Source: Acidimicrobiia bacterium (lineage in GTDB: Bacteria > Actinomycetota > Acidimicrobiia > Acidimicrobiales > JANYDT01). From it: a DNA stretch of 64,000 bases. The notes under the pieces were generated by a model that saw nothing but the letters and a program-made list of their open reading frames with translations, did not search any database and was not told the origin of the DNA. Positions 10,984 through 45,008 of the stretch are shown in pieces (within the stretch, counting starts at the first letter, position 1; every line of letters begins with the position of its first letter). Position numbers and translations under genes: made by a program. The stretch lies in contig JANMZO010000022.1 in NCBI GenBank assembly GCA_031383405.1, forward strand, positions 1,544 through 65,543, written 5' to 3'.

Positions 10984-10991
10984 GAAGGGTC

Positions 10992-11411: not shown

Positions 11412-11450
11412 ACCGCTGCGGGCACGCACCGGCCCGACACACGGCGCTGA

Positions 11451-11574: not shown

Positions 11575-11641
11575 GACCACCGGAACTCGCCGACTCGGCG
11601 CAAGACGCGACGTGTGGTGCGTGAGATGCCACACTGGTGGG

Positions 11642-11914: not shown

Positions 11915-11959
11915 ACCCCGCTCCGAAGGACCGGGGACGGCCGGTAGGCTGGCACCACC

Positions 11960-14605: not shown

Positions 14606-14700
14606 CCGCCCATCGGCCGTGTGGGTGCACCTTTCGGCCCTCCCGGGAGAAAAGTGAACCCACACAACGGGTTCGCACGACTCACCGGTACTCTGGAGAC

Positions 14701-18611: not shown

Positions 18612-19480
18612 CCGAACCGGCGGCCGACGCACGATCCCTTCTGAACGGGGCCACCCGGGTATGCGGGGTGATTGGAGATCCGGTCGGTCACTCTCTCTCA
18701 CCGGCTCTGCACAATGCCGGATACGCCGCGCTCGGGCTCGATTTTGTCTACGTCGCGTTCGCTGTGAGTCGCGACCTCGGCCGCGGAGCCGTTGACGCCA
18801 TGCGCTCGTTGCAGTTGGCCGGGCTTTCGGTGACGATGCCCCACAAAGACACCATCGCCCGCTTCGCCGATGAGGTGTCGGACGACGTGGCCATGCTGGG
18901 GTCCGGTAATACGCTGCGCTGGGTGAATAACCGGATCCGGGCCGAAACCACAGACGGGCCCGGCTGCATCACCGCGCTTCGTGAGGGCGGTGCCGATCCC
19001 GCGGGGAGGCGGGTCATGGTGCTCGGTGCCGGTGGGGCCGGGCGAGCCGTCATCCATGCCGCGGCCAACGCCGGGGCCCGGGAAATCATCGTCGTCAACC
19101 GCAGCGTCGAGCGGGCCGAGGCCGCCCTTCTCCTGACCAACGGCATAGGTCGGGTGGGCTCGGCCGACGAAGCCGACACATGCGACATCATCGTCAATGC
19201 CACGTCGATCGGGATGGGGCCTCCCGCCCCGGGCGACGCTGCGGTCGCGCTGCCACTCGATCCGGCCCGCCTCGGACCCGGGCAGTACGTCAACGATCTG
19301 ATCTATCACCCGCTGGTCACATCACTCATGATCAGGGCGGCCGAACGCGGTGTGACGGTGATTGGTGGTGTGGGCATGCTGCTCCACCAGGCTGCGCTCC
19401 AGTTCACCTTCTTCACGGGTGAACCCGCCCCCATAGAGGCGATGCGATCCGCGGTCCAGCAGCACTTGGCGAGCCGGTAA
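18608..19480 (+). CDS. aroE: shikimate dehydrogenase
   Basis: 290 aa with GVIGDPVGHSLSPALHNA and NAD(P)-binding VLGAGGAGRA. The GTG overlaps the mltG stop. Confidence 0.85.
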   Translation: MTEPAADARSLLNGATRVCGVIGDPVGHSLSPALHNAGYAALGLDFVYVAFAVSRDLGRGAVDAMRSLQLAGLSVTMPHKDTIARFADEVSDDVAMLGSGNTLRWVNNRIRAETTDGPGCITALREGGADPAGRRVMVLGAGGAGRAVIHAAANAGAREIIVVNRSVERAEAALLLTNGIGRVGSADEADTCDIIVNATSIGMGPPAPGDAAVALPLDPARLGPGQYVNDLIYHPLVTSLMIRAAERGVTVIGGVGMLLHQAALQFTFFTGEPAPIEAMRSAVQQHLASR

Positions 19481-19494
19481 CAGGTCCTACGATC

Positions 19495-19538
19495 CGAAAC
19501 GCCGGATTCGAAAACGCCGGATTCGAAAACGCCGGAAT
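19495..19538. repeat. 15-bp tandem repeat x3 (cgaaaacgccggatt)
   Basis: Read directly from the sequence. It is intergenic, between aroE and the prepilin peptidase. Confidence 0.9.
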
Positions 19539-19600
19539 CAGGTGTCAGGCCGTTAGCGCTAGTGGACCGCTAGTCTCGGCGGCGTGATCGGAGTCTGTTC

Positions 19601-20380
19601 ATGACGGGAACTGTCGGCGGAGCGTTGGTTGGCGGGCTCATCGGGTTCGTCGCGTCGCCGGCGGTATCGGTCCTCACGACCCGTCCTCCACTGCTCGATG
19701 CCAAAGAGCTTCCAAGCCTGAAGTTTCGGTGCGACAGTTGCGGCTCGGCGCTGAAAGCGATGGATTCGGTTCCGCTTGTTTCGTTTGTGATTCGACGCGG
19801 CCGCTGTCGTCTCTGCGGCGGGCGTATCAGCCGATGGGACTTCGCAGCGGAAATCCTGTCGGTCGTTGTCGGGGCTCTCGTGGGGTGGCGGGTGGGGTTG
19901 GTGCGCGAGCTTCCCGCTTTCCTGGTCCTCGGCCTCGTCAGTGTCATCGTGCTGCTGGTTGACGCCCGGCTGCACAAGATTGCGACTCGCCTGATCTACC
20001 CGGCCACTGCGCTTGGGTTTGTGCTGCTCGCATTCGCCGGGCTCACGGGCGGACGTCGCGGAGACGTACTCGTTGCCGCACTGGGTGGCGTCGCAGCGAG
20101 CGCCTTCATCTGGTTTCTCGTCCTCGTCTACCCGGCCGGTATGGGTGACGGTGACGCCAGGCTCGTACTGTTTCTCGGCATGTTTCTCGGTTGGTTCGGC
20201 TGGAGATATGTGTACCTAGGACTCACGGCCGGGTTTCTTCTCGGGTCCGTCTTCGGACTCGGAATCGCCGTAGTCAAAAGGACCGGCCGGAAAACGAAGT
20301 TCGCGTTCGGGCCCTACCTCTGTGCCGGTGCCCTCTTCGTTGTACTTTGGCCCGGCATATTCTCGTCGTACATGCAGTAA
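19601..20380 (+). CDS. A24 family prepilin peptidase
   Basis: 259 aa and polytopic. It has a Cys-rich N-terminal loop (CDSCGSAL...CRLCGG), an active-site-like MGDGDARL and a C-terminal FGPYLCAGALF. Confidence 0.8.
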   Translation: MTGTVGGALVGGLIGFVASPAVSVLTTRPPLLDAKELPSLKFRCDSCGSALKAMDSVPLVSFVIRRGRCRLCGGRISRWDFAAEILSVVVGALVGWRVGLVRELPAFLVLGLVSVIVLLVDARLHKIATRLIYPATALGFVLLAFAGLTGGRRGDVLVAALGGVAASAFIWFLVLVYPAGMGDGDARLVLFLGMFLGWFGWRYVYLGLTAGFLLGSVFGLGIAVVKRTGRKTKFAFGPYLCAGALFVVLWPGIFSSYMQ

Positions 20381-20438
20381 GTCCGCTCAGCAACGACCTG
20401 CCCGGTTATTGCCGTCGAGTCATACGAGTCATCCTAGA

Positions 20439-21605
20439 ATGACCCTTGTGCTTCGCTACCTCACTGCCGGAGAATCTCACGGTCAAGCGTTGACGGTGAT
20501 CATGGAAGGCGTTCCCGCCGGCCTGTCAATCACGGTCGAGGAGATTCAGGCGGAACTCGGCCGGCGCCGTCTGGGCTACGGGCGTGGACCCCGAATGCGC
20601 TTCGAACAAGACGAGGTGACGTTGCTCGGAGGGGTCCGTCATGGTCACACGCTGGGCTCGCCGGTGAGCATCCAGATCGGTAACACCGAGTGGCCGAAAT
20701 GGCAGGACGAGATGAGCCCGGCTCCCGGGGTGACGACCAAGCCGCTCACAAAGCCCCGTCCCGGGCACGCCGACCTTACCGGCATGCAGAAATATGGCTT
20801 CACCGATGCACGCGATGTGCTCGAGCGCGCTAGCGCCCGGGAAACCGCCGCCCGCTGCGCCGCCGGCGCAGTTGCCAAAGCGCTCATGGCGACCGTCGGA
20901 ACACAGATCATCAGCCATGTGATCCAGATGGGCCCGGCCCGAAGTAAGGCAACCGCGCGTCCGCAGCCGAGCGATCTCAGGCAGGTAGATGAATCGGCCG
21001 TACGGTGCTTCGACACGGCCGCCGAACTCGAGATGATCGACGAGATCAAAGCTGCAGCGAAAGACGGCGACAGCCTCGGCGGCATTGTGGAAGTGCTCGG
21101 GTACGGCGTTCCTGTCGGCCTCGGCAGTCATGTGCACTGGGACCGCAAGCTCGACTCGCTCCTCGCTGCGGCGCTTATGAGCATCCAAGCCGTCAAGGGC
21201 GTGGAGATCGGAGACGGTTTCGAAGTGGCCGGTCGCCGTGGCAGCCTGGCCCACGACCCAATCGTTTGGAACCCGGCGACGCAGCAGTACCGTCGCGAGT
21301 CGAGCTTGGCCGGCGGCACGGAAGGCGGTATGTCGACCGGTGAACTACTCGTCGCCCGGGTGGCCATGAAGCCCCTCGCCACGCTCAACAAGCCGACGCT
21401 CGCCACCGTCGACATGGCGACGAAGGAGGCAACCGTCAGCTTCAAAGAGCGCACGGATGTGACCGCGGTTCCGGCCATGGGTGTCGTCGCCGAAACGATG
21501 GTGGCGCTGGTGCTGGCCGGCGAGGCGCTGCGAAAGTTCGGTGGCGATTCCCTCAGCGAGTTCGTCCGCAACCATGACTCGTTCGTCCGCTCGCTCAACC
21601 CCTGA
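20439..21605 (+). CDS. aroC: chorismate synthase
   Basis: The ATG at 20439 gives MTLVLRYLTAGESHGQAL. The start could be a few codons later. Confidence 0.95.
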   Translation: MTLVLRYLTAGESHGQALTVIMEGVPAGLSITVEEIQAELGRRRLGYGRGPRMRFEQDEVTLLGGVRHGHTLGSPVSIQIGNTEWPKWQDEMSPAPGVTTKPLTKPRPGHADLTGMQKYGFTDARDVLERASARETAARCAAGAVAKALMATVGTQIISHVIQMGPARSKATARPQPSDLRQVDESAVRCFDTAAELEMIDEIKAAAKDGDSLGGIVEVLGYGVPVGLGSHVHWDRKLDSLLAAALMSIQAVKGVEIGDGFEVAGRRGSLAHDPIVWNPATQQYRRESSLAGGTEGGMSTGELLVARVAMKPLATLNKPTLATVDMATKEATVSFKERTDVTAVPAMGVVAETMVALVLAGEALRKFGGDSLSEFVRNHDSFVRSLNP

Positions 21606-21619
21606 CGGTTCGGCGTTCG

Positions 21620-22285
21620 ATGACTGACGTACGCACGGTCGGAGCGGCAACGGTCAGCGCGGCAACGGTCGGAGCGGAAACGGTCGGAGCGGAAACGGTC
21701 AGAGCGGAAACGGTCGGTGAATTTCTGGGAAGCCCGGTTGTCGGGTCGGTGGCGGTCGGTTCGGCACCATGGTCACGACACATTGTCCTCGTCGGCATGA
21801 TGGCCTCGGGGAAGACGACTGTCGGCCGCTTTCTGGCCGCCCAACTCGACCGGCAGTTGCTCGATCTCGACTCGGTCCTGGTCGAAGGCATGGGCATGTC
21901 GATTTCCGAAGCCTTCGATTTGCACGGGGAAGCGTGGTTTCGCTCCCAGGAATCGGCGGCGTTGGTCGAGGTTCTCCGACGGCCTGAACCGACGATCGTG
22001 TCCCCGGGGGGTGGTGTTGTGCTGGCGGCCAGAAACCGGGAGGTTCTGAAGCGCTCAGCCCGTAACGTATGGCTGCGGGCCACCCCGGAAACGATCATCC
22101 GGCGGGTCGGATCGGGCTCGGGGCGTCCACTTCTGGCCGGAAATACCGAGGACCGGGTCCGACGCATCGACGCCGAGCGCCGCGGACTCTACGCTGAGGT
22201 CGCAACGGTGGTGGTCGACGTCGACGACCTCACAACGCCACAGATCGCCGAGTGTATACGCGCCGCGTTCCACGATCTCTGCTGA
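21620..22285 (+). CDS. aroK: shikimate kinase (start uncertain)
   Basis: The P-loop is VGMMASGKTTVGR. The ORF from ATG 21620 adds roughly 50 aa made of 15-bp repeats, and an internal GTG near 21748 is an alternative start. Confidence 0.8.
   Translation: MTDVRTVGAATVSAATVGAETVGAETVRAETVGEFLGSPVVGSVAVGSAPWSRHIVLVGMMASGKTTVGRFLAAQLDRQLLDLDSVLVEGMGMSISEAFDLHGEAWFRSQESAALVEVLRRPEPTIVSPGGGVVLAARNREVLKRSARNVWLRATPETIIRRVGSGSGRPLLAGNTEDRVRRIDAERRGLYAEVATVVVDVDDLTTPQIAECIRAAFHDLC
21635..21717 (+). repeat. 15-bp tandem repeat x5.5 (acggtcggagcggMa)
   Basis: Read directly from the sequence. It translates in frame as TVGAA TVSAA TVGAE TVGAE TVRAE TVG. Confidence 0.95.
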
Positions 22286-22579
22286 AGGACTTCGGCCGTG
22301 AGATACGCTTCCACGGTTTCGCGACCATAGGTTCCGGCTACCGACGACTGGGTGCCTATACCCCATCACCGGGGTGTGGATCGGTTGCGTCTTCGTGGAT
22401 CCCCGATGTGTATCAGCCGACGCTCAGATGGCCAGATGTGCGGTAAACCTACGGGATTTGACCGGGCGACAGACCCGATAGGCGATAGCCAGCGGGATAA
22501 CAAGGGTAAGCGAAGAACGCCGCTCTCGGTGGTCTTGCGTGGCAAGATGCACAGACAAGTTCATAGGGAAGGCCGCGCA

Positions 22580-25500
22580 ATGCAATCGACGGAAAACCGC
22601 CGTACACCTAAAGCGAAACGAACATCGGCCAGGCATCGTCGGCGGTCGCTGCTGCAGTTCGGGCTTGGGATCGTGACGGCGGTCGGCATAACGGCCGTTG
22701 GCTTCCCCTTTGTGGCCTCGGGCCAATCGTCGTCGGGCCCATCCTCGGGTCAGACGGTCCAAGCTTTCGCTGCGGCGCCCGCCACTTCCACCACCACGAA
22801 GGCAACCTCTGAGGTTCGAAAGCCCAGCTACGGCGACGTTGACACCGCCCGGAGCACGGCTGCGTTGACGGTGGTGCTCGCAGCCCCGTCGGGCGCCCTT
22901 CGCTCGACGAGTTCGGCAAGTGAGATACGTTGGATTTTTGATCGCCCCGTGACCCAACTCGGCGCAATTGACAAACAACTGGATCCGAAGAAGTACGTTT
23001 CGATCACACCGAACCTCGATGGCAAGTTCCGATGGGTGTCGACGCGTGCCCTCGTTTTTGAACCAACCTCGGTTCCGGGTTCATCGACGTACACTGTCAC
23101 CCTCGCGGCCGGGTTCCCGGCCATCGATGGCACGAGCCTCGCCGAGCCCAAGGTGACGAGATTCTCCACCCCGACGATTTCGTGCTCGCTGGTCGACACC
23201 CAACTTCCGCGGGTCCGGGTCCACTGCGACCAGCCATCTACGATCAAATCCGTAGGCGCGCATACGGTCATCGAATACTTGCGCCTCGAATCTGATTCCG
23301 GCGACTCGTTCGCTACTCAGTACCGTCCGGCCGCCACCGACCTGGCCACGATGAAAAAGATCGACCCGGCCGGAACTGCGGCACTCGAAAAGGTGATTGC
23401 CCGGCTCGATTCGGCCAAGGAGGTTGTGGCCACCCACGGGGTCCGCATCGTGCGTGAGGAGTTATGCGACGCAACGAAGGACCCGTCAGTCGACAACACC
23501 TGCTTCGTTTTTGAAGGTATCCGTCCTGTAGTGCTCGATACCGTGGCCCGCCTCAAGTTCTCGGCCGGGACCGTTACCTCCGAAGGTCCGCTCCTCGGAA
23601 AAGCCTCGGTCGATGGTCGTATTCCAACCGAGCGTTCCCCCCTTGTCGTCATGAACGCCTGCTCGAAGAACTGCAACCCCGAAAGCTACTTCGGACTGGA
23701 AATGGCCGGCGACGGGTTTTCACCCTTGGGTCTCGATGGAGCGATCACCGTGAAGGACATCGGAGCGAAGAAGTCGGTGACCTACCGGATCCCGGCCGAC
23801 CTGACCATCAAATCCGAAGACGACGTCGACTCGTTGCCCGGCAATCTCCGTTACCCGCTGTCGCTTTCATGGGCTGGCATCAAACCTCTGCGGACCTATG
23901 AAGTGAGTGTCTCGCCGAAGGCCCGAAACATCTCCGGCCGCGGCCTCGGCTACACCGCCGTTCGCACGTTCTCTCTCGGCAACTACCCGGCGTTCGCGTT
24001 CATTTCCGGTGGCGAGCAGGTCGTCGAGTCCGAGGTCAACGGCTTGCGGCTCCGCTCGCGCAACACCACCGAAGTTGATGAGATTGTTTCCCGCGTGGAC
24101 AGGGGAGACCTTGTTGCGCAAATACGGGCCTACGCCGGAACCTCGACCGATCCCCTCGACCTCAACAAGGTCGGTTCGTCGAAGGTTACGCTGACCCCGA
24201 AGACGAACTACTCAGCGAGTTCGGTCGTGCCGTTCCCTGACAAGAAGCCGGGCGTGTTTCTGGTAGCGGTGAGGGCAAGAAAGTACGTCGGGAAGAGTCG
24301 TTACAACGACCAGGGTTACCAGTGGAACGGGTCCGATCAGAACGCGGCGGATGAAGCGGCCAAGTCGGCTAAGGGCACGGGAGCATACGGGGATGGTTGG
24401 TCGAGCGCGCTTGTGCAGCGAACGGATCTCGCCGTGACGCTGAAGCGCTCGGAGAGCAACGTTGTCGTGGTGGTCACAAGCCTGGCCGACGCGAAGCCGG
24501 TGAAGGGCGCCGAGGTGTCGCTCTACGATTCCGACGACCATCCGTACTGGACCGGAAAGACCGGTGAGGAAGGCATCGTCGAAGGCAAGGTATCCAAGAA
24601 CAAAGCTTGTGCGTCCGGCTGTGATGTGGTCGCGGTCGTCCAACACGATGGTGATATCGCGTATGCCCTCAGCTACTGGCGTGACTGGGGCGATGACGTT
24701 CGCTACAGCGACGTGAGCGACTCGTCGGCGCCCGACTCCTCCGGCGGTTCCGAAGCCGACCTCGTCGACACCCAAGCGCCTACCACCGTGGCCGAAGACG
24801 CGGCCCCCACGCTTGCGCCGGGTGTCCACCGGATCGGGGCCGTGTTTGCCGACCGGGGCGTCTACAAGGTCGGTGAGGTAGTCAACATCAAGGGGTACCT
24901 GCGAAATGAAACATTACGTGAACTTACCTTTCCCGACGGTGTGAAGAAGGCGACTGTCACGGTCACCGACCCACGCAATACCGTGATCGCGTCCAACAAG
25001 GTCGACGTTTCTTCCAGTGGCGCTTTCGACACCACGGTCACTGTCCCGACCGCTGCCGTACAAGGCGACTACAGCATCGCGGTTGACAACACGTTCACCT
25101 CCTTCCTCGTTACGACGTTCCGCAAACCCGACTTCGTCGTAGACGTCAAAGCCACGCCGGGTTCGGTCGTGCGCGGCAAGTCGATCAGCTTCGATGTCAC
25201 GGGTCGCTATCTCTACGGGTCCCCAATGACGGGTGATCCGCTGAATGCGAGCTACTCCGCCAACTACCTCACCATCAACCCTCTGGCCGACATTCGCGGC
25301 CCGCAGTACCAGGGCTTCACATGGACATTCACGTGTGAGTACGCGCAGACGGCCGACACGCCCGACCCTGATGCCACCTCCGGCGATGAGTGTTACGACT
25401 CCGCAGGAGGCGATCTGAGCGGCCAGAACTCCGCGACGCTAGACACTGCCGGACACTACGTCGAGACCATCCAGGCGCCGGTGCGCAGCAAGCGTCACTA

Positions 25501-28500
25501 CCCGGTCGGGCTCGGCTACGAGGCCAACGTCAGCGATGTAAGTCGCCAGTCATTCGCGGGTCGAACATCGGCGATCGTTCACCCGGGTGAGTACTACGTG
25601 GGCGTCCGTCAGAAGGAGTACTTCACCACCTCCAAGAAGCCGATGGTGATCGACCTCATCGCGGGATCGCCCGACGGCAAAGTTGTAACCGGAGCAAACG
25701 TGACCGTCGATCTTTTCCGGTGGGACTACGTCACGACGAAGCGCAAGAACGACGACGACACCGTGACGACGGTCGGTACCTGGAAATCGACACAAGCCGG
25801 CACCGCGAAGGCAAAGACCGCGGGCCAGCCGGTGTCGGTTTCGTTCACCCCGGATAAGGCGGGCACCTATGAGGTCAGGGCCCATGCCAAGGACGCTTCC
25901 GGCAACTATCTCGAATCGGGCTTTTCGACCTATGTGCTCGGACCGGACTTCGTGCCGTGGTACACCGACGACTCCCAGCCGCAACTCACGATGATCGCCG
26001 ACAAGGCGTCGTACAAGCCGGGTGACAAGGCCCGCATCCTCATCCAGTCACCGTTCTCAAAAGCCACCGGCCTGCTTACCATCGAGCGCAATGGTGTTAT
26101 GGAGCACCGCCGTTTCGACGTCAACAGTTCGGCCACGTCGGTCGAGATTCCAATCACGGATGAATACACGCCCAATGTCTATGCCAGTGTGACCTTGTTC
26201 AAGGGCCGCACGGGTGCCCCGAGCAAGACCGACCCGTCGGACCCGAACCGCCCGCAGGTGCAGACCGGAACACTCAACCTTTCCGTTCCACCGAAGACAA
26301 AGGAACTTTCGGTGAGCGTCGAAACTGATAAGCGCGAGTATCTTCCTGCTGCCGATGCGTCGGCGACGGTGAAGGTTGTCGATGCCAAGGGTCAGCCGGC
26401 GAAGGGAGAGGTGACGCTGTGGGCGGTCGACGAGGGCGTCCTTCGCCTCACCAACTACACGGCACCCGATCTGCTCACCATGATGTACCCGGGTCGCTCG
26501 CTGAGCGTCGACACCGCCGACAGCCGAATGCGGCTGGTCGCGCGTAACCGCGACGATGAGAAGGGTGGCGTCGACGGTGCTGCCCCCGCACCGGGTGGCG
26601 GTGGAGGCGACGAAGAAGCCACGGTGGCGGAGGGTATACGCACCGACTTCCGCACCCTCGCCGCCTGGTCGGCCACCGTGAAGGTCGGCGACAACGGCAT
26701 AGCTGTGGTGCCGATGAAGTTGCCGGAATCCCTCACGGAGTACCGCGTGATCGCGGTTGCTATCAGCGGTGCCGACCGTTTCGGCACCGGTAAGAGCAGC
26801 CTCACGATCCGCAAGCCGTTCCTCGCCCTGGCGGCACTGCCCCGCTCGGTCAACATCGGAGACACCTTCGAAGCCGGCGCGACGCTCCGCAATCAAACCG
26901 GCACGGCTGCGCCTGCGACATTGACGATTGATCTTCCGGCCGACTCGCCGCTCGTGGTCGATGGCCCGAAGACACTGACCGCTTCCGCTCTCGGCGACGT
27001 TCCGACCGAGCTCCGGTTCAAGTTCCGTGCGCTGAAGACCGGCACCGCGACGTTCAATCTGAAGGCCAAGCTGGCCGACGGAGTCGGTGCCGAGCGTAAC
27101 GACGCGCTCCGTGCCTCGATACCGGTCACCGTTACGCGTCGGCTGGAAACCGTTGCGACCTCGGGCACGGTGTCGGCCGGTGGAAAGCCTGATCTGGAGC
27201 CGATCACCGTTCCCGCGGGGGTTTACGGTGACCTCGGATCGCTCGAAATCACCGCCTCGTCAAGTGCCCTTGCCGGTCTGCAAAACGGCATCACGCAGCT
27301 CGCCGAGTACCCCTACGGTTGTGTGGAACAGCGGTCGTCCCGCATCCGGGTGTTGCTTGACCTGGCTGCGCTGGCCGAGAAGTATCCGCTACCGGGCGTC
27401 AAGACCGGCAACATCAAGACGGTCGTCCAGGAGCAGATCAATCTCCTGCGCACGTATCAAACCGACACCGGCGGCCTCGCGTACTGGCCGGGTGATACGT
27501 ATGCCGACCAGTTCATCTCGCCCCGCGTGTTCCTTCTTCTCCTGGATGCCAAAGACGCCGGCTACAAGATCCCCGCGGGCATGATGGAGCAGTTGCAGTC
27601 CTATCTGATTGAAATGGCCAGGGGTGAGCGCAGCGACAGCTTCGTCGATTCGTCCCTCCCGAACCAGGCTCAGGTGGCCTGGGCGCTGGCCCGGGCGGGG
27701 CACCCCGAATCCGGCCTCGTCGACTTCCTCTACGAAAAGCGCTTCGAGCTCTCGTTCCTGGAGCGGGTTCATCTCCTTCATGCCATGTTGGAAGCCGGGG
27801 AGAAGGGCAAGCGCCCGAACTCGCTGTTTGGCGATCTCACCTCAAGCGTGCGAACCGATGGCGGGCGGGCCATGGTCGAGGAAGACTTCGATTGGGCCAA
27901 TTGGCCCAGCTTGAGTTACCTCGACGGCGGTCGTTCCCATGACACGGCGGCGTTCCTGTCGTTGCTCGTTCGTATCGACGCCAGCCACCCGTTGGTGACT
28001 CAGTTGGCGGCCGGGCTTCTGTCGCAACGCCGCAACGGGACGTGGGACAACACGTTGGAGAGTGGCTATGCGTTGAAGGCACTTCTCGACGTGTCGCGCT
28101 ACGCGGAGAAGACGACGCCCGACTTCACGGCGAAGATCGCCATCGGAACATCCAAGTTGATGGATCAGAGGTTCGCCGGGTCGGATCTCTCGGTCGTCGG
28201 CTCTTCGACGCCGATGGCAAAGCTAAGCACACTTAGTAAGCCTGGCACCGCCAGCCAACTGAGTATCTCGGCCGAGGGGAAGGGCACGTTGCACTGGGCG
28301 GCTTCGCTGCGATACGCGCCGAACCTGGCGTCGTTGAAGCCGCTTGATCAAGGTCTCACGGTCGAGCGTCGGTACTTCCCGTTCACCAAGACCGAGTACG
28401 ACAAATCCGGAAACCTGATCCTCCCTCCGGCGAGCACGTCGTTCAAGGCGGGTGACCTGGTCCGCGTCGTCATCAAGGTGTCCACGCCACTCGCCCGCAC

Positions 28501-28948
28501 GAACCTCGCGGTCGACGACCCGCTGCCCGCCGGACTCGAAGCCCTCAACGCGTCTCTCGCGTCCACGTCGCAGGCTGATGTCGGCGAGGGCGATACCGCC
28601 GGGGACGACGGCAACGGAGCTTCGGCCTACGACCGGGTCGAGATCGGCAACGACCGGGTGCTGTTCTTTGCGAACCAGTTTTCAGCGGGCGAGCACGTGA
28701 CGTCGTACATCGCCCGTGCCACCGCGCCAGGCACGTTCGTCGTCGCTCCGACCCAGGCCGAAGACATGTACCGCCCCGACGTGTTCGGCCGCAACGGAAC
28801 CGCCACCATCGTGATTGCGCCCCCGGTCGGAAAGGCTGCGGCGCCCGTGTCGACCGTGGCGCCCGTATCGACCGTATCGCCCGTGTCGACCGCCAAAGTG
28901 GCCTCGACACCGGCGTCGGCCGGGGTCACCACGACGACGAAAAAGTAA
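22580..28948 (+). CDS. bacterial alpha-2-macroglobulin family protein (thioester-containing)
   Basis: The ATG at 22580 follows agggaagg. 2122 aa. The N-terminus has a basic RRRSLL stretch then a hydrophobic segment. The thioester motif EYPYGCVEQ sits at 27320-27331 (CVEQ), flanked by many MG-like beta-rich repeats. The next gene is a PBP1C, which is the known pairing. Confidence 0.85.
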   Translation: MQSTENRRTPKAKRTSARHRRRSLLQFGLGIVTAVGITAVGFPFVASGQSSSGPSSGQTVQAFAAAPATSTTTKATSEVRKPSYGDVDTARSTAALTVVLAAPSGALRSTSSASEIRWIFDRPVTQLGAIDKQLDPKKYVSITPNLDGKFRWVSTRALVFEPTSVPGSSTYTVTLAAGFPAIDGTSLAEPKVTRFSTPTISCSLVDTQLPRVRVHCDQPSTIKSVGAHTVIEYLRLESDSGDSFATQYRPAATDLATMKKIDPAGTAALEKVIARLDSAKEVVATHGVRIVREELCDATKDPSVDNTCFVFEGIRPVVLDTVARLKFSAGTVTSEGPLLGKASVDGRIPTERSPLVVMNACSKNCNPESYFGLEMAGDGFSPLGLDGAITVKDIGAKKSVTYRIPADLTIKSEDDVDSLPGNLRYPLSLSWAGIKPLRTYEVSVSPKARNISGRGLGYTAVRTFSLGNYPAFAFISGGEQVVESEVNGLRLRSRNTTEVDEIVSRVDRGDLVAQIRAYAGTSTDPLDLNKVGSSKVTLTPKTNYSASSVVPFPDKKPGVFLVAVRARKYVGKSRYNDQGYQWNGSDQNAADEAAKSAKGTGAYGDGWSSALVQRTDLAVTLKRSESNVVVVVTSLADAKPVKGAEVSLYDSDDHPYWTGKTGEEGIVEGKVSKNKACASGCDVVAVVQHDGDIAYALSYWRDWGDDVRYSDVSDSSAPDSSGGSEADLVDTQAPTTVAEDAAPTLAPGVHRIGAVFADRGVYKVGEVVNIKGYLRNETLRELTFPDGVKKATVTVTDPRNTVIASNKVDVSSSGAFDTTVTVPTAAVQGDYSIAVDNTFTSFLVTTFRKPDFVVDVKATPGSVVRGKSISFDVTGRYLYGSPMTGDPLNASYSANYLTINPLADIRGPQYQGFTWTFTCEYAQTADTPDPDATSGDECYDSAGGDLSGQNSATLDTAGHYVETIQAPVRSKRHYPVGLGYEANVSDVSRQSFAGRTSAIVHPGEYYVGVRQKEYFTTSKKPMVIDLIAGSPDGKVVTGANVTVDLFRWDYVTTKRKNDDDTVTTVGTWKSTQAGTAKAKTAGQPVSVSFTPDKAGTYEVRAHAKDASGNYLESGFSTYVLGPDFVPWYTDDSQPQLTMIADKASYKPGDKARILIQSPFSKATGLLTIERNGVMEHRRFDVNSSATSVEIPITDEYTPNVYASVTLFKGRTGAPSKTDPSDPNRPQVQTGTLNLSVPPKTKELSVSVETDKREYLPAADASATVKVVDAKGQPAKGEVTLWAVDEGVLRLTNYTAPDLLTMMYPGRSLSVDTADSRMRLVARNRDDEKGGVDGAAPAPGGGGGDEEATVAEGIRTDFRTLAAWSATVKVGDNGIAVVPMKLPESLTEYRVIAVAISGADRFGTGKSSLTIRKPFLALAALPRSVNIGDTFEAGATLRNQTGTAAPATLTIDLPADSPLVVDGPKTLTASALGDVPTELRFKFRALKTGTATFNLKAKLADGVGAERNDALRASIPVTVTRRLETVATSGTVSAGGKPDLEPITVPAGVYGDLGSLEITASSSALAGLQNGITQLAEYPYGCVEQRSSRIRVLLDLAALAEKYPLPGVKTGNIKTVVQEQINLLRTYQTDTGGLAYWPGDTYADQFISPRVFLLLLDAKDAGYKIPAGMMEQLQSYLIEMARGERSDSFVDSSLPNQAQVAWALARAGHPESGLVDFLYEKRFELSFLERVHLLHAMLEAGEKGKRPNSLFGDLTSSVRTDGGRAMVEEDFDWANWPSLSYLDGGRSHDTAAFLSLLVRIDASHPLVTQLAAGLLSQRRNGTWDNTLESGYALKALLDVSRYAEKTTPDFTAKIAIGTSKLMDQRFAGSDLSVVGSSTPMAKLSTLSKPGTASQLSISAEGKGTLHWAASLRYAPNLASLKPLDQGLTVERRYFPFTKTEYDKSGNLILPPASTSFKAGDLVRVVIKVSTPLARTNLAVDDPLPAGLEALNASLASTSQADVGEGDTAGDDGNGASAYDRVEIGNDRVLFFANQFSAGEHVTSYIARATAPGTFVVAPTQAEDMYRPDVFGRNGTATIVIAPPVGKAAAPVSTVAPVSTVSPVSTAKVASTPASAGVTTTTKK
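28841..28894 (+). repeat. 18-bp tandem repeat x3, in frame (APVSTV x3) at the A2M C-terminus
   Basis: Read directly from the sequence: gcgcccgtgtcgaccgtg / gcgcccgtatcgaccgta / tcgcccgtgtcgaccgcc. Confidence 0.9.
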
Positions 28949-28954
28949 GCGTGC

Positions 28955-31090
28955 ATGCGACGACGGACAAAGGTTCTGGCCGGTTCGTTCGTCGTCGGCG
29001 CGCTTGGGCTCTGGGCCCGACTCGGTAGCCTGCCTGTAGCGATAACCGAGCCGAGAACCATACGTGCACCGACGTTTCTGGCGAGCGATGGCTCCCCGCT
29101 CGACGCGGCCGCGACCCGGGCCCTCGCTGCGGAAAAACGACAATCATCCAAAACCCGGGGCCCGTCACTGGCGAAGCAGGCCAAGCGGTTGGCCGAGGCG
29201 ACGAAGGCGGCCGAAGACCGCCGTTTTACGTCCCACGTCGGGGTCGACCCCATCGCCGTGGTACGGGCCATCGGGGCCGACGTTCGGGCTCGACGGGTCG
29301 TGCAGGGTGGTTCTACGATCACCCAGCAATTGGTGAAGCTGCGAGCCGGATCCGGGTCCGATGGACGTAGCGCCCGGGGGAAGCTGCGGCAGGCGATCTT
29401 CGCGCTCCGGCTCGAACACCGCATGAGCAAAGACGACATCCTTTCCGCATACCTGGCTGAAGCTCCGTACGGAGGCCGGATGATCGGGGCCGAATCGGCC
29501 GCGGAGGGGTACTTCGGGACCTCGGCATCACAACTCACGTGGGCCCAGGCGGCATATTTGGCCTCGCTGCCGCAACGCCCCACGGCCTTCAACCCGCGGC
29601 GTGATCAAACGGCAGCGCGTCACCGGCAGGTCTGGATCCTGAGGCGGTTGCGCAAGACAGGGGTACTCGACGAACGAGAACTGCAGGCCGCCCTCTCCGA
29701 GGCATTGAACTTGGTTCCCGACGCCTTTGATCCGCAAGCTCCGCACTTCACCGAAATGCTGGCCAAACAGCAATTGACGACCGGCGTTCCGATCCGTACG
29801 ACACTCGACGCGGCTCTGCAGCGCGACGTTGTCGGGATTGCGCGGCAGCAGCGACGCGTACTGCGCAAGAACCATGCCGCCAACGTTGCGGTGGTGGTAC
29901 TCGACAACCGCACCGGCGCGGTGCGGGCCTGGGAGGGTAGCGGCGACTATTTCGATGCTGATCACGGTGGCATGCTCAACGGCCCGACTCTTACGCGGCA
30001 GGTCGGGTCGACCATCAAGCCATTTATCTACGCCGGTGCGTTTGACGCGGGATCGGCTCCGGGTGATCTGATTGACGACACGCCGTTTGAGACCATGGCC
30101 GACGGTAAGAACTTCCAACCCCAGAACTACGATCACAAGTTTCGGGGCCCGATTCCGATGCGAAGGGCCTTGGCCAGTTCGGTCAATATCCCTGCGGTGC
30201 GCCTGCTGGCCGACCAGACACCACGCGTGCTTATGGATACGTTGTCGAGGTCCGGGATCGAGCTTCCATTCGGGCCTCAACACTACGGACTGGCCCTGGC
30301 TCTCGGAACAGCTGAGATAAGCCTGCTCGATCTGACGAAGGCGTACGCTTCGTTCGCCCGCGGCGGCCTTTCACTGAACCCGACCTTCATAGAACCCGCG
30401 AAGATGCAGGCCGGTGGACGCCAGGTTGTGAGCGAGTCGGCCGCGTTTCTCGTCAGCGATGTGCTTTCGGACAACGAGGCCCGAGCCTCAGCGTTCGGTA
30501 GACGCTCGGCACTGAAGTTCACCTTTCCCGTTGCGGCCAAGACCGGAACTTCGCAGAACTTCCACGATAACTGGGTTGTGGGTTACACGGCTGATTTCAC
30601 CGTCGGCGTGTGGGTGGGCAACTTCGACCGGACCCCACTGGCCGGAGCCACGGGCGTCACCGGCGCCGGGCCGGTCTTCCACGCGGTGATGCTCGCCGCC
30701 CACCGCTATCTCGCGCCAAGCGCGGGCCTGTCACCCGACGCGACACTGCTTCGTTCGGTACCCGACGATCTCGTTGCCGTCGAGCACGGCACCCGCACCG
30801 AGTACGACTGGTTGGTTCCACGGCGCCGGGTCGTTTCGGCGCCGGACCTCGGTGGGAAATTGCGTCTGGTCGAGCCGGTCGGCGGCGGTCAGTACCTTCT
30901 CGACGCCAGCCGCCCGGGGGATGCCCAGAGCCTTCCTCTGCGCGCCAGCGGCGGCAGCGCTCCCTACCTGTTCACGGTCGACGGCGATCCCTTTACCGGG
31001 TCGTCGTGGTCACTGCGGGTTGGTCGTCACGAGATCTGCGTACGTGACCGCACAGGCACCAAACGGTGCTCCCACTTCTCCGTGTCGTGA
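28955..31090 (+). CDS. pbpC: penicillin-binding protein 1C (bifunctional glycosyltransferase/transpeptidase)
   Basis: 711 aa with an N-terminal TM anchor. GT51 motifs are EDRRFTSHVGVD and GGSTITQQL. Transpeptidase motifs are STIKPF, SVN and KTGTS. There is also a PBP1C-type C-terminal domain. Confidence 0.9.
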   Translation: MRRRTKVLAGSFVVGALGLWARLGSLPVAITEPRTIRAPTFLASDGSPLDAAATRALAAEKRQSSKTRGPSLAKQAKRLAEATKAAEDRRFTSHVGVDPIAVVRAIGADVRARRVVQGGSTITQQLVKLRAGSGSDGRSARGKLRQAIFALRLEHRMSKDDILSAYLAEAPYGGRMIGAESAAEGYFGTSASQLTWAQAAYLASLPQRPTAFNPRRDQTAARHRQVWILRRLRKTGVLDERELQAALSEALNLVPDAFDPQAPHFTEMLAKQQLTTGVPIRTTLDAALQRDVVGIARQQRRVLRKNHAANVAVVVLDNRTGAVRAWEGSGDYFDADHGGMLNGPTLTRQVGSTIKPFIYAGAFDAGSAPGDLIDDTPFETMADGKNFQPQNYDHKFRGPIPMRRALASSVNIPAVRLLADQTPRVLMDTLSRSGIELPFGPQHYGLALALGTAEISLLDLTKAYASFARGGLSLNPTFIEPAKMQAGGRQVVSESAAFLVSDVLSDNEARASAFGRRSALKFTFPVAAKTGTSQNFHDNWVVGYTADFTVGVWVGNFDRTPLAGATGVTGAGPVFHAVMLAAHRYLAPSAGLSPDATLLRSVPDDLVAVEHGTRTEYDWLVPRRRVVSAPDLGGKLRLVEPVGGGQYLLDASRPGDAQSLPLRASGGSAPYLFTVDGDPFTGSSWSLRVGRHEICVRDRTGTKRCSHFSVS

Positions 31091-31179
31091 ACGGTACGGG
31101 TGCACGTTTACCCGTGAAAGGGGGAAAAGTGCACCCATACCTGCGTAGAGCCCCGGCTTGCGTCGGCCACAATGGTGGG

Positions 31180-32253
31180 ATGCGAGTTGTTCCTGTTTCT
31201 CTGCCTGATGGTCGGTCCTATGACGTGCACGTCGGCCCGGGCGTGAGGATCGAGTTGGCTGCCATTCTGGCGGCGGTGGCTCCGAAGGCGAAGCGGGCGG
31301 CGATCGTCTCCCAACATGCCATCGCTGACATGTGGGGTTCGGTGGAACCGGGTGTCGAGAGCCGTCACTTCTCGATCGGCAACGGGGAGACGTTCAAGAC
31401 GCTGTCAACCGTCGAAGAACTGTGTCGCGAATGGTCGCTGTGGGGGATGACCCGCAACGATGTCGTCGTGGCGGTCGGGGGAGGTATGGTCACCGACGTC
31501 GGGGGGTTCGCCGCGTCGATCTACCTACGCGGAATACAGGTCATCTATGTCTCGACAACGTTGCTCGGCATGATCGATGCTGCGATCGGAGGCAAGACGG
31601 GCGTGAACCTGCCCGAAGGGAAGAACCTCGTCGGCACGTTCTGCCAGCCCGCCGCCGTGCTGTGCGACACCACCGCGCTCGCCACCATGCCGCCGCGAGA
31701 ACTGCGTTCCGGTCTCGGCGAAATGGCGAAGTACCACTTCCTCGAAGGAACGCCGCCCCTGACGAAGACCCCGGGGGGACTCGAGTCGCTCGACCTCGAA
31801 GACCGCATCGCCCGCTGCATCGAGATCAAGGCGCAGGTGGTCGCGGTCGACGAGAAGGAAGGTGGATTACGGGCGATCCTCAACTACGGCCACACGTTGG
31901 CTCACGCTCTGGAAATCGCGGACAATTTCGAGATACTGCACGGCGAGGCGGTCGCTCTTGGCCTCGGTTATGCGGCCGAAGTGGCGCTCCGACTTGGTCG
32001 GATCGACCGGGCCAGGGTCGACGAGCACTACCGCATCTTGTCGTCGCACGAACTCAACACGAAGCTCACAAAGTTGTATAAGCCCGAACAACTTCTCGCG
32101 CTGATGGGTCGTGACAAGAAGGCGCTCAACGGCATCACCTTCGTGCTCGACGGTCCCAACGGTGTGGAGTCCGTCGCCGGCATCGACCCGACGGTGCTGA
32201 TCGACGCGCTCGCTGCCGTGACCGATGACGCGGCCGGTGCTGTGGAAGGCTGA
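31180..32253 (+). CDS. aroB: 3-dehydroquinate synthase
   Basis: The ATG at 31180 gives MRVVPVSLPDG.... Motifs include GGGMVTDVGGFAAS, GGKTGVNL and NYGHTLAHALE. Confidence 0.9.
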   Translation: MRVVPVSLPDGRSYDVHVGPGVRIELAAILAAVAPKAKRAAIVSQHAIADMWGSVEPGVESRHFSIGNGETFKTLSTVEELCREWSLWGMTRNDVVVAVGGGMVTDVGGFAASIYLRGIQVIYVSTTLLGMIDAAIGGKTGVNLPEGKNLVGTFCQPAAVLCDTTALATMPPRELRSGLGEMAKYHFLEGTPPLTKTPGGLESLDLEDRIARCIEIKAQVVAVDEKEGGLRAILNYGHTLAHALEIADNFEILHGEAVALGLGYAAEVALRLGRIDRARVDEHYRILSSHELNTKLTKLYKPEQLLALMGRDKKALNGITFVLDGPNGVESVAGIDPTVLIDALAAVTDDAAGAVEG

Positions 32254-32257
32254 CGAC

Positions 32258-32716
32258 ATGACCGAACGGCCGATCGTCCTGCTGCTGAGTGGACCCAACC
32301 TGAACCTTCTCGGCTCCCGACAGCCGGAGATCTACGGAACGACGACGCTCGCGGATCACGTCGCAACCGCGTCACATGCGGCATCCGACAATGGCTTGAG
32401 CCTGGAGCATCTCCAGTCGGCCAACGAGTCGACGCTCGTAGAAGCCGTACATGCGGCCCGTGGGCGATGTGCGGCGATCGTCATCAACGCCGGCGCCCTC
32501 ACCCATTACAGCTGGTCGCTCCATGATGCGTTGAACTCGTTCGACGGGGTGAAGGTGGAACTTCACATTTCCAATACCCACGCCCGCGATTCGTGGCGTC
32601 ACACCTCGGTGATCGCCGGCACCGTCCACGGATCGATACAGGGCTTCGGCGCTGACGGCTACGCCATGGCTATCGAAGGCGTCGCCCGATTACTACGTAC
32701 ACATAGTAAAAAGTGA
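32258..32716 (+). CDS. aroQ: type II 3-dehydroquinate dehydratase
   Basis: The ATG at 32258 gives MTERPIVLLLSGPNLNLLGSRQPEIYG. It also has HISNTHARDSWRH. Confidence 0.92.
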   Translation: MTERPIVLLLSGPNLNLLGSRQPEIYGTTTLADHVATASHAASDNGLSLEHLQSANESTLVEAVHAARGRCAAIVINAGALTHYSWSLHDALNSFDGVKVELHISNTHARDSWRHTSVIAGTVHGSIQGFGADGYAMAIEGVARLLRTHSKK

Positions 32717-33900
32717 GCGCAGCTGTGATGATCTCCGTCTCCGAAATCCGAGCTGCGGTCGCGCTGGGCCATGATATGAACGCAGCGCTTCCGTCGATCG
32801 ACACCGCTGATCGACTGCTGGCGGTCCAAAGCTCCGCGTTTGCCGGTGGTGGCGCTCCCGACGCACTCCTGATCACCGACCTGGTCAATGTCCGTTACCT
32901 CACCGGGTTCACCGGCTCATCCGGGCGGCTTCTTGTAACGCCCGATGCCGCCGTCTTCATTTCCGATGGTCGCTACGCCGAGCAGGCGGCCGGTGAACTG
33001 GCGTCGACCAACTGCCCAGCGCACATAGAAATTCGGCGAACGGTCGAGGACCAGAAGGCCCTCCTTTCCGAACTGATGATGTCGTTAGGGGTCACACGAC
33101 TTGGACTCGAAGCTACGCATGTGTCATGGGCCGCGGCGGAGGATTACCGTACGCTGCTCGGCGAGATCGACAGATCGGAACTCGTGGCCACGAAGGACGT
33201 CGTGGAGAGTCTCCGTCGCACGAAGGATGCAGCGGAACTGGCCCGCCTGGCTCGGGCGTCCGCCATCGCCGACGCTGCCCTGTTGCGGGTGATTTCGCTG
33301 CTGGCCGAACGGCCGACCGAGATGGCCTTTACCCGTGCCCTGGAATCGGCGATGGTCGACCTGGGCTCGCACGGACCGAGCTTCGACACGATCATCGCAA
33401 GTGGTTCGAACGCCAGCCGTCCACACCACGATCCATCCGATCGCGTCATCGAGTCGGGCGACGAGGTCATCTGCGACTTCGGCGCGACCATCGACGGCTA
33501 CCACTCCGACATGACCCGCACCGTTTACGTCGGTGAGCCCGCGATGAAGCAGAAGCGCCACTTCGGCGTTGTGCGAGCCTCGCAGAGAGCGGGTGTCTCG
33601 GCGGTGCGCCCGGGCGCGACGGGTGTCGACATCGACCGGGCCTGCCGCGACGTGATCGTAGAGGCCGGTTGGGGTGATTTCTTCGTGCACGGCACCGGGC
33701 ACGGCAGCGGTCTGTTGATCCACGAGACTCCGTGGGCGGGTCAAACAAGCACCAGCGTCCTGCAGACCGCCGACATTCTTACCGTCGAACCCGGCGTGTA
33801 CCTACCGGGCGAAGGTGGCGTTCGCATCGAGGACTCCCTCGTCGTCTGCGACGACGGCCCGGTTTTCTTGACCCGCGCCCCATACGACCTGATCGTGTAG
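32713..33900 (+). CDS. pepP: M24 family Xaa-Pro aminopeptidase
   Basis: 395 aa. The pita-bread metal ligands lie in [29 protein letters not shown] and EPGVY...IED. Confidence 0.85.
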
Positions 33901-34094
33901 GCCGATGGTCCCCCGAGGGGGCGGACCTATGGAGCCGAAACTCGTATTTGTCGGGCGGCCCCGGACTCCGGAGGGGTCGGCAACGTGAGAAATCGGCGGT
34001 GTCCGGGGCGGGCCCCCCGCTCACCTACACTGGTAGGTCGATTTCTGGCGTCACGATCCGGTCGCCATCATTCCTTCTCTCCAAAGGTTGCGTC

Positions 34095-34658
34095 ATGCCC
34101 CCAGTTTCCACGAGCGATTTCAAGAACGGCATCACCATCGATATCCCCGAGGGTCTGATGCAGATCATCGATTTCCAGCACGTGAAGCCGGGTAAGGGTG
34201 GTGCCTTCGTTCGCACAAAGATGCGCAATGTACGCACCGGTGCCGTTATTGACCGCACCTACAACGCCGGCGAGAAGATGGAGCAGGCCATTATCGACAA
34301 GCGGGAAATGCAGTTCCTGTACCGCGATGGATCGAACTACGTGTTCATGGACAACTCGACCTACGACCAGATCGAGATAACACCCACGCAACTGGGCGAT
34401 GCCATCAACTACCTCAAAGAGCAGGACAACGCGATGGTCAACACCTATGACGATGAGATCATCGGCATCGAGCTTCCGGCTGCTGTCGAGCTGATCATCA
34501 CCGAATGTGAACCCGGTATCCAGGGCGACCGGGTTTCCGGCGCGAAGAAGCCGGCCACGCTTGAGACCGGCCTCGTTATCCAGGTTCCGCTGTTCGTGAA
34601 CCAGGGCGACAAGGTGAAGGTAGACACCCGTTCGGGCGACTATCTCACCCGCGTCTGA
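34095..34658 (+). CDS. efp: elongation factor P
   Basis: The ATG at 34095 gives MPPVSTSDFKNGITI.... It contains KPGKGGAFVRTKMRNV and is 187 aa. The long upstream ORF extension is non-protein-like. Confidence 0.97.
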   Translation: MPPVSTSDFKNGITIDIPEGLMQIIDFQHVKPGKGGAFVRTKMRNVRTGAVIDRTYNAGEKMEQAIIDKREMQFLYRDGSNYVFMDNSTYDQIEITPTQLGDAINYLKEQDNAMVNTYDDEIIGIELPAAVELIITECEPGIQGDRVSGAKKPATLETGLVIQVPLFVNQGDKVKVDTRSGDYLTRV

Positions 34659-34665
34659 CCGCCCG

Positions 34666-35079
34666 ATGACATCTCCGGCGACCTCGCGTCGCGATGCCCG
34701 CGAGCGGGCGATGGAGCTTCTCTACGAAGCGAAATCCAAAGGTGATGATGTTGCGACGGTCGTCGCGTCGCTTCCGATACCGCCTGACTCCTATGCCGCG
34801 TCGATTGCGCTCGGAGCAGGCAAGGCCGAGCATGAAGCAGGGGCCATGGATCTGATCCGTCGCTTCGCCCGGAAGGACTGGCCCGTCGAGCGGCTCCCGC
34901 AGCTCGACGTCATCATCCTCCGCCTTGCCATCGAAGAACTGCAGTATCAGGCCGGCGTGCCGAAAGCTGTCGTGATTGACGAAGCGGTTGAATTGGCCAA
35001 GCTCTTTTCGACAGAAGATTCGGGTCGTTTCATCAACGGCATCCTCACCTCAATCGCCGACGATCTCGGTAGGCACTGA
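34666..35079 (+). CDS. nusB: transcription antitermination factor NusB
   Basis: 137 aa with RRDARERAMELLYE and a C-terminal FINGILTSI. Confidence 0.9.
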   Translation: MTSPATSRRDARERAMELLYEAKSKGDDVATVVASLPIPPDSYAASIALGAGKAEHEAGAMDLIRRFARKDWPVERLPQLDVIILRLAIEELQYQAGVPKAVVIDEAVELAKLFSTEDSGRFINGILTSIADDLGRH

Positions 35080-35141
35080 CGGGGAACTCCAGGTCTTGCG
35101 ACCCAGCCGGGTCGAATGGATCTGGCGGGGATTTCCGTGGG

Positions 35142-41697: not shown

Positions 41698-41698
<1 letters not shown>
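40574..41698 (+). CDS. carA: carbamoyl-phosphate synthase small (glutaminase) subunit
   Basis: The ATG at 40574 overlaps the pyrC stop. It has a GICLGQQLL catalytic Cys and QHHPE. Confidence 0.95.

Positions 41699-45007
<3,309 letters not shown>

Positions 45008-45008
<1 letters not shown>

Follow-up and report, generated by a model that had tools for sequence, protein, structure and literature searches.

Bacterial alpha-2-macroglobulins (A2Ms) have been described from Gram-negative bacteria, as proteins of the periplasm (PMC4498604, PMC5764988; PMC3735191 likewise deals with Gram-negative bacteria). Those of type I are represented by ECAM, the YfhM protein of E. coli, and by SaA2M of Salmonella, both lipoproteins of ~1650 amino acids (aa) that reside in the periplasm and are tethered to the inner membrane (PMC3328433, PMC4498604). 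In E. coli and Salmonella, the A2M gene is followed directly and on the same strand by pbpC, and it is this pairing of A2M and PBP1C that underlies the idea of a protease trap and a wall-repair enzyme acting after a breach of the outer membrane, an idea that is still hypothetical. Type II A2Ms, such as MagD of P. aeruginosa and YfaS of E. coli, do not contain the CXEQ motif and are encoded, without pbpC, in a mag operon of six genes (PMC3735191, PMC5764988). Here, we analyzed a stretch of 64,000 nucleotides (nt) from contig JANMZO010000022.1 of the Acidimicrobiia bacterium assembly GCA_031383405.1 (in the following, the window), which contains genes for a type I A2M of 2122 aa and a PBP1C of 711 aa. 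As in the E. coli and Salmonella module, the A2M gene and pbpC follow each other directly on the same strand, but unlike that module the pair lies within the shikimate operon of an actinobacterium, between aroK and aroB.

In our estimation, it is likely that an ancestor of one sublineage of Acidimicrobiia gained the A2M-pbpC pair a single time between aroK and aroB, and that the pair has since been passed on vertically and under purifying selection, with a mechanism that would combine a protease trap with a wall synthase. An earlier interpretation of the same DNA, made from its letters only (the sequence-only reading), had already placed a thioester A2M and a PBP1C between aroK and aroB, 8.9 kb apart, and this is borne out by Pfam and NCBIfam matches, motifs and coordinates. 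Its further statement that the A2M-pbpC module has been described mainly from diderm bacteria agrees with the literature (PMC4498604, PMC5764988).

Identity and architecture of the two proteins

Pfam scans of the A2M returned bMG3, MG2, A2M_BRD, A2M and bMG10, each above its own cut-off, and NCBIfam yielded no family at E ≤ 1e-5. When the protein was compared with PDB sequences by phmmer, Salmonella SaA2M was retrieved (4u48, E = 2.9e-37) together with 4rtd, 5a42 and 4ziq (about 1e-35). An AlphaFold2 model is available for residues 49-1130 (mean predicted local distance difference test score 76). Foldseek identified ECAM (5a42, E = 2e-31) and SaA2M (4u48, E = 1e-30) as the best solved structures for this model, which also matches the MG0-NIE-MG1 fragment of ECAM (4zjg) with a template modelling score of 0.57 on the target. 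The type I scaffold of MG domains, bait-region domain, thioester domain and MG10 is thus common to ECAM, SaA2M and the window protein, at an identity of only ~15% over the structural alignment. The YPYGC(L/V)EQ thioester of the type I A2M and PBP1C module (YfhM/ECAM with PbpC, SaA2M) is present as well, as EYPYG-C1581-VEQ aligns with the YPYGCLEQ of SaA2M. GCxEQ is invariant in 18 sequences from the clade of Acidimicrobiia A2Ms described below (8/8 full-length members and 10 further representatives), and its surroundings are strongly conserved in the clade as EYPYGCxEQRSSRIRVL. The segment between the Pfam A2M_BRD and A2M domains is acidic and glycine-rich, combines a conserved PGGGGG(D/E) core with variable flanks and aligns with residues ~925-955 of SaA2M; this segment, residues ~1318-1352 of the window protein, is the putative bait.

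PBP1C is a bifunctional glycosyltransferase/transpeptidase with an N-terminal membrane anchor. It matches the Pfam families Transgly, Transpeptidase and BiPBP_C, the last of which (PF06832) is marginal (28.1 bits versus a cut-off of 26.8) and is absent from the precomputed matches of several distant clade members. The protein clears the equivalog cut-off of NCBIfam TIGR02073 (519.8 versus 494.2 bits), whereas the PBP1A-family model gives 390.7 and stays below its own cut-off of 508.75. The catalytic motifs EDRRFTSHVG, GGSTITQQ, S352-TIK (STIKP), S409-VN and K529-TG are found in the window protein and in 8/8 orthologues. An exact-sequence look-up of the window PBP1C returned no record.

Because of the Pfam matches, the matches to PDB sequences and folds, the thioester and the equivalog score of PBP1C, the pair is a type I A2M with PBP1C in the sense of PMC5764988. 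By motif, fold, adjacency and equivalog score it belongs to the known A2M-PBP1C module and is not a new type of system, and it departs from that module in that the lipoprotein anchor is absent. Assignment to type II and the mag operon was considered and rejected: type II proteins share the MG-domain fold and export to the envelope with the window A2M, but the latter has CXEQ and is surrounded by aro genes and pbpC, with no mag genes in the vicinity.

The window A2M is about 470 residues longer than ECAM and SaA2M, and roughly 310 of these lie at the N-terminus, where they include a domain resembling Big_5. The Big_5 match remains below threshold (21.3 bits versus a cut-off of 23.6) and spans profile positions 2-105 of 105; the outgroup proteins P0005 and P0009 exceed the cut-off. 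Whereas ECAM has a signal peptide with a lipobox (PMC3328433), no lipoprotein signal is present in the window protein. Its sole hydrophobic segment is followed by A-S-G and then by a linker rich in Ser, Thr, Ala and Gly that extends up to the first conserved domain, and in many relatives A-x-A-type sites occur after the hydrophobic segment. The N-terminus can be read either as a Sec signal peptide or as an uncleaved signal anchor. Export by the Tat system, prompted by the sequence RRRS-LL, was dismissed: other clade members do not conserve the twin arginine, and Sec export is therefore assumed. At the other end of the protein, tandem repeats encode PVSTVA/PVSTVS units within a tail rich in Pro, Val, Ser and Thr that ends in TTTKK. 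This tail occurs only in the sublineage of the window, namely in the window itself, in locus L001 and in shorter form in L002, and the other sublineages do not have it.

Insertion between aroK and aroB and descent of the pair

A survey for empty sites, in which metagenomes were scanned with the window AroC and the window proteins were then mapped by tblastn, provided 80 loci with aroC genes 67-80% identical to that of the window. In 51 of them aroK lies next to aroB (the tblastn hits are separated by a median of 78 nt and by at most 336 nt), and in three further loci aroB comes directly after aroC. A tblastn match to A2M or pbpC was found in none of the 51 loci with adjacent aroK and aroB (0/51). 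AroC identity to the window is at most 80% in every locus without the insertion, and the collections differ in that the empty-site loci come from JGI and the A2M-bearing loci from ENA, NCBI and Logan. As aroK and aroB are contiguous in related loci, the contiguous junction is ancestral in this part of Actinomycetota. The sequence-only reading had proposed that the pair was inserted into a normally adjacent aroK-aroB junction, and the survey supports it on this point.

The order aroK-A2M-pbpC recurs in L001, L003, L004, L005, L093 and L094 and is partially visible on the short contigs L006 (A2M-pbpC-aroB) and L007 (aroK-A2M), which makes eight further loci. The junction that is empty in the 51 loci is thus occupied in L001, in L005 and in deep relatives. 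The A2M of L001 is 95% identical to that of the window; L005, a metagenome-assembled genome (MAG) titled 'uncultured Acidimicrobiales bacterium' (MFD02832.bin.1.185, CAVXNJ01), has an A2M 77-89% and an aroC 94% identical. L003 corresponds to GCA_031367185.1, and L006 and L007 are 'Acidimicrobiia bacterium' MAGs; taxon labels exist for L005-L007 only. The closest named relative, an Acidimicrobiales MAG (aroC 94%, alaS 88% identical), and the housekeeping synteny, which in Pfam scans of the window genes is typical of actinobacteria throughout, confirm that the genome is of the actinobacterial type, as had been stated from the letters.

By pairwise identity, the loci fall into four sublineages: the window with L001, L005 and L002; L003 with L004; L092 with L093; and L094. 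Between sublineages, identity amounts to 44-49% for A2M, 47-59% for PBP1C and 86-90% for AroC, and the three groupings are congruent. A2M and pbpC are adjacent in 10/10 clade loci that contain both genes, relocated copies included. A word-index homologue search with the 2122-aa A2M gave 62 true matches among 8000 candidates and at least four close relatives; these counts are lower bounds, and the A2Ms of L092-L094 were missed although they are present in the same collection. When residues 49-1130 were searched exhaustively with HMMER against 1.84 billion cluster representatives, about 13 proteins (50% identity clusters) matched in full length and end to end, with 32-69% identity and 313-1642 bits; below them the score fell sharply to 205 bits (28% identity). 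The inspected clade representatives from this search are 1993-2206 aa long, have GCLEQ and contain no lipobox. The wider A2M family comprised 4,573 matches at E ≤ 0.001. Judged from these comparisons, the Acidimicrobiia A2Ms appear as a small, deep clade, and in a neighbor-joining tree of 48 A2Ms, a crude method, they are united in 100/100 bootstraps.

Outside this clade, long-form A2Ms with Big_5 occur in other phyla (P0005-P0045, with labelled examples from Proteobacteria, Armatimonadia, Anaerolineae and Caldilineaceae, among others). They resemble the window protein in length (~1900-2100 aa), in an N-terminal Big_5-type domain and, for the most part, in CXEQ, and are 24-32% identical to it over 62-78% of its length. 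Many of them carry a lipobox cysteine, in contrast to the Acidimicrobiia clade, which never does. In two outgroups, P0006 (lipobox LVAC) and P0008 (LAAC), the A2M gene is followed by a PBP1C gene with a 4-nt overlap, and we count these pairs in favor of a transfer of A2M and pbpC as a unit.

Composition and substitution rates bear directly on the age of the pair. The G+C content of the window is ~63%, with no compositional break across the region. G+C at third codon positions (GC3) is 0.770 for A2M and 0.737 for pbpC, compared with 0.72-0.78 in ten neighboring genes, and the fit of synonymous codons, calculated as leave-one-out likelihood against 41 other open reading frames (ORFs) of the window, gives z = +0.52 for A2M and z = -0.43 for pbpC. 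The sequence-only reading had described the A2M gene as rich in ATT and TTT codons that are rare elsewhere and had taken this as a hint at horizontal acquisition. Neither part holds: ATT accounts for 12/73 Ile codons (0.164) versus 0.167 in the 41 other ORFs, TTT accounts for 13/66 Phe codons (0.197) versus 0.198, and positions 22580-31090, compared with their flanks in GC3 and codon usage, prove native and give no foreign signal. Moreover, a deep sublineage has conserved this insertion, its codon usage being native, so that the outcome which the sequence-only reading had named as a sign of ancient vertical inheritance has largely come about. Between the window and L001, synonymous divergence (dS) is 0.235 for A2M and 0.240 for pbpC, with 0.15-0.23 in the flanks, and the ratio of nonsynonymous to synonymous divergence (dN/dS) is 0.10 for either gene, within the range of the flanking housekeeping genes (0.06-0.21). 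Both genes are under purifying selection. No direct or inverted repeats were found flanking the pair and no tRNA genes within the 64-kb window. From the conserved arrangement, the congruent divergence, the native codons and a dS like that of the flanks, it follows that the acquisition is ancient and was followed by vertical inheritance.

A young foreign island of 8.9 kb, recently acquired by the aro operon of this organism, would readily explain why the pair is absent from the 51 related junctions and why the A2M family is otherwise found mostly in other phyla, and the TTT share among the Phe codons of pbpC (10/28 versus the reference of 0.198) is a weak signal in the same direction, from few codons. 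We nevertheless regard such an event as very improbable, since the pair cannot be distinguished from its flanks in G+C, GC3 and codon fit, ATT and TTT are used in A2M as often as on average in the window, the pair has the same dS as its flanks, integrase, repeats and tRNA are missing, and relatives whose A2M is only 39-49% identical carry the same insertion. It is extremely improbable that the pair is a decaying remnant of non-functional genes drifting in the operon. The A2M gene of L005 is indeed interrupted by at least two frameshifts, but the window ORFs are intact at 2122 and 711 aa, dN/dS is as low as 0.10 in both genes and every catalytic and thioester motif is preserved in all four sublineages; the L005 assembly, moreover, also has an indel in the region of the start codon, which suggests sequencing error.

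Several observations count against a single ancient gain followed by vertical inheritance of a working protease trap. In L002 and L092 the pair, still adjacent, is located elsewhere, which we read as secondary relocation. In L005 the frameshifts of the A2M gene (9866-16182) lie near the start codon and near 13310, with pbpC intact; they may be assembly errors, or the gene may be a real pseudogene. Given the relocations and the frameshifts, retention at the aroK-aroB site is not absolute. The nearest outgroup grouping of the clade, and with it any candidate donor or sister group, reaches only 21/100 bootstraps, and all clade members stem from uncultured MAGs or metagenomic contigs. With regard to the protein itself, the hydrophobic segment has no lipobox cysteine at its end or close to it, 0 of about 20 clade members have a lipobox, and a protein of ~220 kDa is left without any other retention signal, as neither an LPXTG motif nor a C-terminal transmembrane segment is present. 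Finally, a conserved core of five glycines, as found in the putative bait, is not what is usually seen in bait regions.

The junction downstream of pbpC behaves like a local hotspot of insertion and rearrangement in the lineage. L005 has genes for a PIN toxin, a CoA-transferase, an unknown ORF and a DAO oxidoreductase there (18432-22867), L003 has an additional SDR gene and a PIN/PhdYeFM toxin-antitoxin pair (18906-21771), and L094 has a PNPOx gene (12130-12558). In L003, L004 and L006, aroB is inverted downstream of pbpC, and in L093 LUD-domain genes (12016-14180) come after aroB, at the position of the window aroQ.

Envelope and possible function

By analogy, we infer an export route, protease trapping and cooperation with PBP1C, the functional model being borrowed from the work on ECAM and SaA2M (PMC4498604, PMC5764988, PMC3328433). 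The A2M would be exported via Sec, then either be released by signal peptidase I or be held by an uncleaved signal anchor, and would fold into the architecture of MG domains, bait and thioester domain known from the E. coli and Salmonella A2Ms. Residues ~1318-1352 would act as the bait: cleavage of this exposed, acidic and glycine-rich segment by a protease would trigger a conformational change and release the thioester domain, and the Cys1581-Gln1584 thioester would then bond covalently to the protease and trap it. PBP1C, probably translationally coupled to A2M across a 6-nt gap, would sit in the membrane with its N-terminal helix and polymerise and cross-link peptidoglycan on the same membrane face. 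Together, the two proteins would shield and mend the cell wall and the zone next to the membrane; their site of action would be the wall itself or the outer face of the cytoplasmic membrane, in a cell that most likely has no outer membrane.

Acidimicrobium, Ilumatobacter, Iamia and Microthrix, cultured members of the Acidimicrobiia, are Gram-positive. For members of one genus of the class, this is documented in PMC12263773. On account of the Acidimicrobiales and Acidimicrobiia titles of L005-L007 and the Gram-positive cultured members, taxonomy makes the host most likely a monoderm without an outer membrane, and on the same taxonomic grounds the diderm periplasm in which type I A2Ms have been described is probably absent from it. 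On these grounds, the envelope anomaly noted in the sequence-only reading persists. Chloroflexota, too, are generally regarded as monoderm. They contain A2M homologues with a lipobox (P0018 from Caldilineaceae, P0027 from Anaerolineae), and the A2M family may therefore not be confined to diderms. Full-text searches of the papers available turned up nothing that links A2M with Actinobacteria, Acidimicrobiia or monoderms. We tentatively suggest, at a confidence a little short of even, that monoderm Actinomycetota have long kept a non-lipidated thioester A2M together with PBP1C and that the module can do without an outer membrane enclosing a periplasm. If this is true, the core job of the module would be to guard the zone of peptidoglycan synthesis at the outer face of the cytoplasmic membrane, and the standard model for bacterial A2Ms, defence after a breach of the outer membrane, would be too narrow.

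There would be no envelope anomaly if the sublineage possessed an outer membrane or another outer barrier and hence a true periplasm in which the module works as in Gram-negative bacteria. Elsewhere, the module is bound up with a periplasm (PMC4498604, PMC5764988), and nothing in the 64-kb window bears directly on the type of envelope. Yet the relatives are named Acidimicrobiales or Acidimicrobiia, a class with Gram-positive-staining cultured members (PMC12263773), none of the window genes scanned with Pfam showed a domain related to the outer membrane, and the lipobox-bearing homologues from Caldilineaceae and Anaerolineae place the family in Chloroflexota as well; taken together, this makes an outer membrane quite unlikely. 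The same proteins could also do a different job, with the A2M buffering the cell's own secreted proteases, serving as a surface or adhesion scaffold, or regulating PBP1C in wall remodelling. The loss of the lipid anchor and the presence of a long, Ig-like (Big_5-like) N-terminal extension would fit such a change of role, the conservation of a G5 core in the bait-like segment suggests that the substrate is specific and not promiscuous, and even for E. coli a role in defence has so far been no more than a hypothesis (PMC5764988). We consider it unlikely all the same: the thioester motif and its surroundings are invariant and dN/dS is 0.10, which indicates that the chemistry of covalent capture has been retained, and the strict adjacency of A2M and pbpC has survived relocation in L002 and L092, as in the classical module. 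Protease trapping beside a wall synthase at the cytoplasmic membrane is thus the reading that we prefer for the pair.

The clade of Acidimicrobiia widens the known host range of the A2M-PBP1C module and, having no lipid anchor, offers a natural comparison for those parts of the wall-repair model that depend on the outer membrane. In addition, the pair is a clean and datable case of a large cassette that became fixed inside a conserved biosynthetic operon. We attach moderate weight to these points, as the protein families are known and related A2Ms also occur in Chloroflexota.

As a separate observation, a gene for an S41 (C-terminal processing) peptidase with a PDZ domain is located about 23 kb downstream of the pair (54375-55736, minus strand). 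The product is one of the host's own envelope proteases and could matter if endogenous proteases are what the A2M buffers.

Organization of the locus and neighboring genes

On the plus strand of the window, the genes follow the order mltG, aroE, prepilin peptidase, aroC, aroK, spacer, A2M, PBP1C, aroB, aroQ, pepP, efp and nusB (coordinates in Table 1). From the stop codon of aroK to the start of aroB, the distance is 8,894 nt, and PBP1C is separated from aroB by 89 nt. The ATG given for A2M is the best start, as it is preceded by the Shine-Dalgarno sequence GGGAAGG and is shared by the 95%-identical homologue P0001. For aroB, the ATG that follows GGTGGG is most likely the start codon, in agreement with the 357-aa orthologue in L001; the aroK orthologue of the same locus was called at 197 aa.

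Table 1. Features of the locus and their positions in the window
Feature	Position	Strand	Evidence or remark
aroC	20322-21605	+	
aroK (shikimate kinase) ORF, upstream edge of the insertion	21620..22285	+	Pfam SKI E = 6.7e-39; later true start possible
Spacer between aroK and A2M, 294 nt	22286..22579	+	
A2M, type I (thioester) bacterial alpha-2-macroglobulin, long form, 2122 aa	22580..28948	+	ATG 22580, TAA 28946-28948
Sole hydrophobic segment of A2M, residues 23-45	22646..22714	+	Hydropathy scan, N-terminal alignments
Big_5 (bacterial Ig-like) domain, sub-threshold, residues 93-197	22856..23170	+	Pfam E = 4.7e-4
Putative bait segment, residues ~1318-1352	26531..26635	+	Clade alignment; between Pfam A2M_BRD and A2M domains
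Thioester motif C1581-V-E-Q1584 (GCVEQ), within EYPYGCVEQRSSRIRVL	27320..27331	+	Translation
Three in-frame 18-nt tandem repeats, PVST-rich C-terminal tail	28842..28892	+	Repeat search; C-terminal alignment
PBP1C, 711 aa	28955..31090	+	ATG 28955, TGA 31088-31090
aroB (3-dehydroquinate synthase), downstream edge of the insertion	31180..32253	+	Pfam DHQ_synthase, DHQS_C; predicted start ATG 31180

The last ~85 nt of the spacer (about 22497-22579) are conserved in L001 and L005, in contrast to the other part of the spacer, in which L005 has diverged. The proximal ~45 nt (GGCAAGATGCACAGACAAGTTCATAGGGAAGG...) and the Shine-Dalgarno sequence are also kept at the relocated copy in L002. The conserved block contains a small CTTGC-GTG-GCAAG hairpin and is probably A2M's own promoter or 5' untranslated region; it could also be a translational element. 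It was also considered as a regulatory element of the whole clade and rejected as such, for it occurs only in the sublineage of the window and is absent from the other sublineages. An Rfam scan over 21500-32500 gave no match in the spacer; the single match, to CcsR1 and below threshold (22.8 bits versus a gathering threshold of 65.3), falls within the A2M coding sequence on the minus strand and was taken as chance. A scan for promoters and terminators over 19400-35200, restricted to the sigma-70 consensus, returned fewer sites than shuffled sequence and none in the spacer. The upstream spacer of ~290 bp that had been attributed to the pair thus exists, with 294 nt and a conserved end, and does not contain a consensus sigma-70 site.

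A type IV prepilin peptidase (A24) gene (19601-20380) is situated between aroE and aroC, a position shared by the A2M-bearing relatives; some of the empty-site loci show weaker prepilin peptidase matches at the same place. Further downstream, carB appears split into an 885-aa ORF with two ATP-grasp halves (41698-44355) and an overlapping 225-aa ORF in another frame with the MGS-like C-terminal domain (44331-45008), which reflects either a frameshift, sequencing error or a genuinely split gene. Three ORFs of the window have no Pfam match at E ≤ 1e-5: 5287-6528 (plus strand, 413 aa), 45948-47387 (minus strand, 479 aa) and 47668-48684 (minus strand, 338 aa). The first two have a GC3 of the coding type, and the first lies between a gene for a GT1 glycosyltransferase and two GH130 phosphorylase genes.

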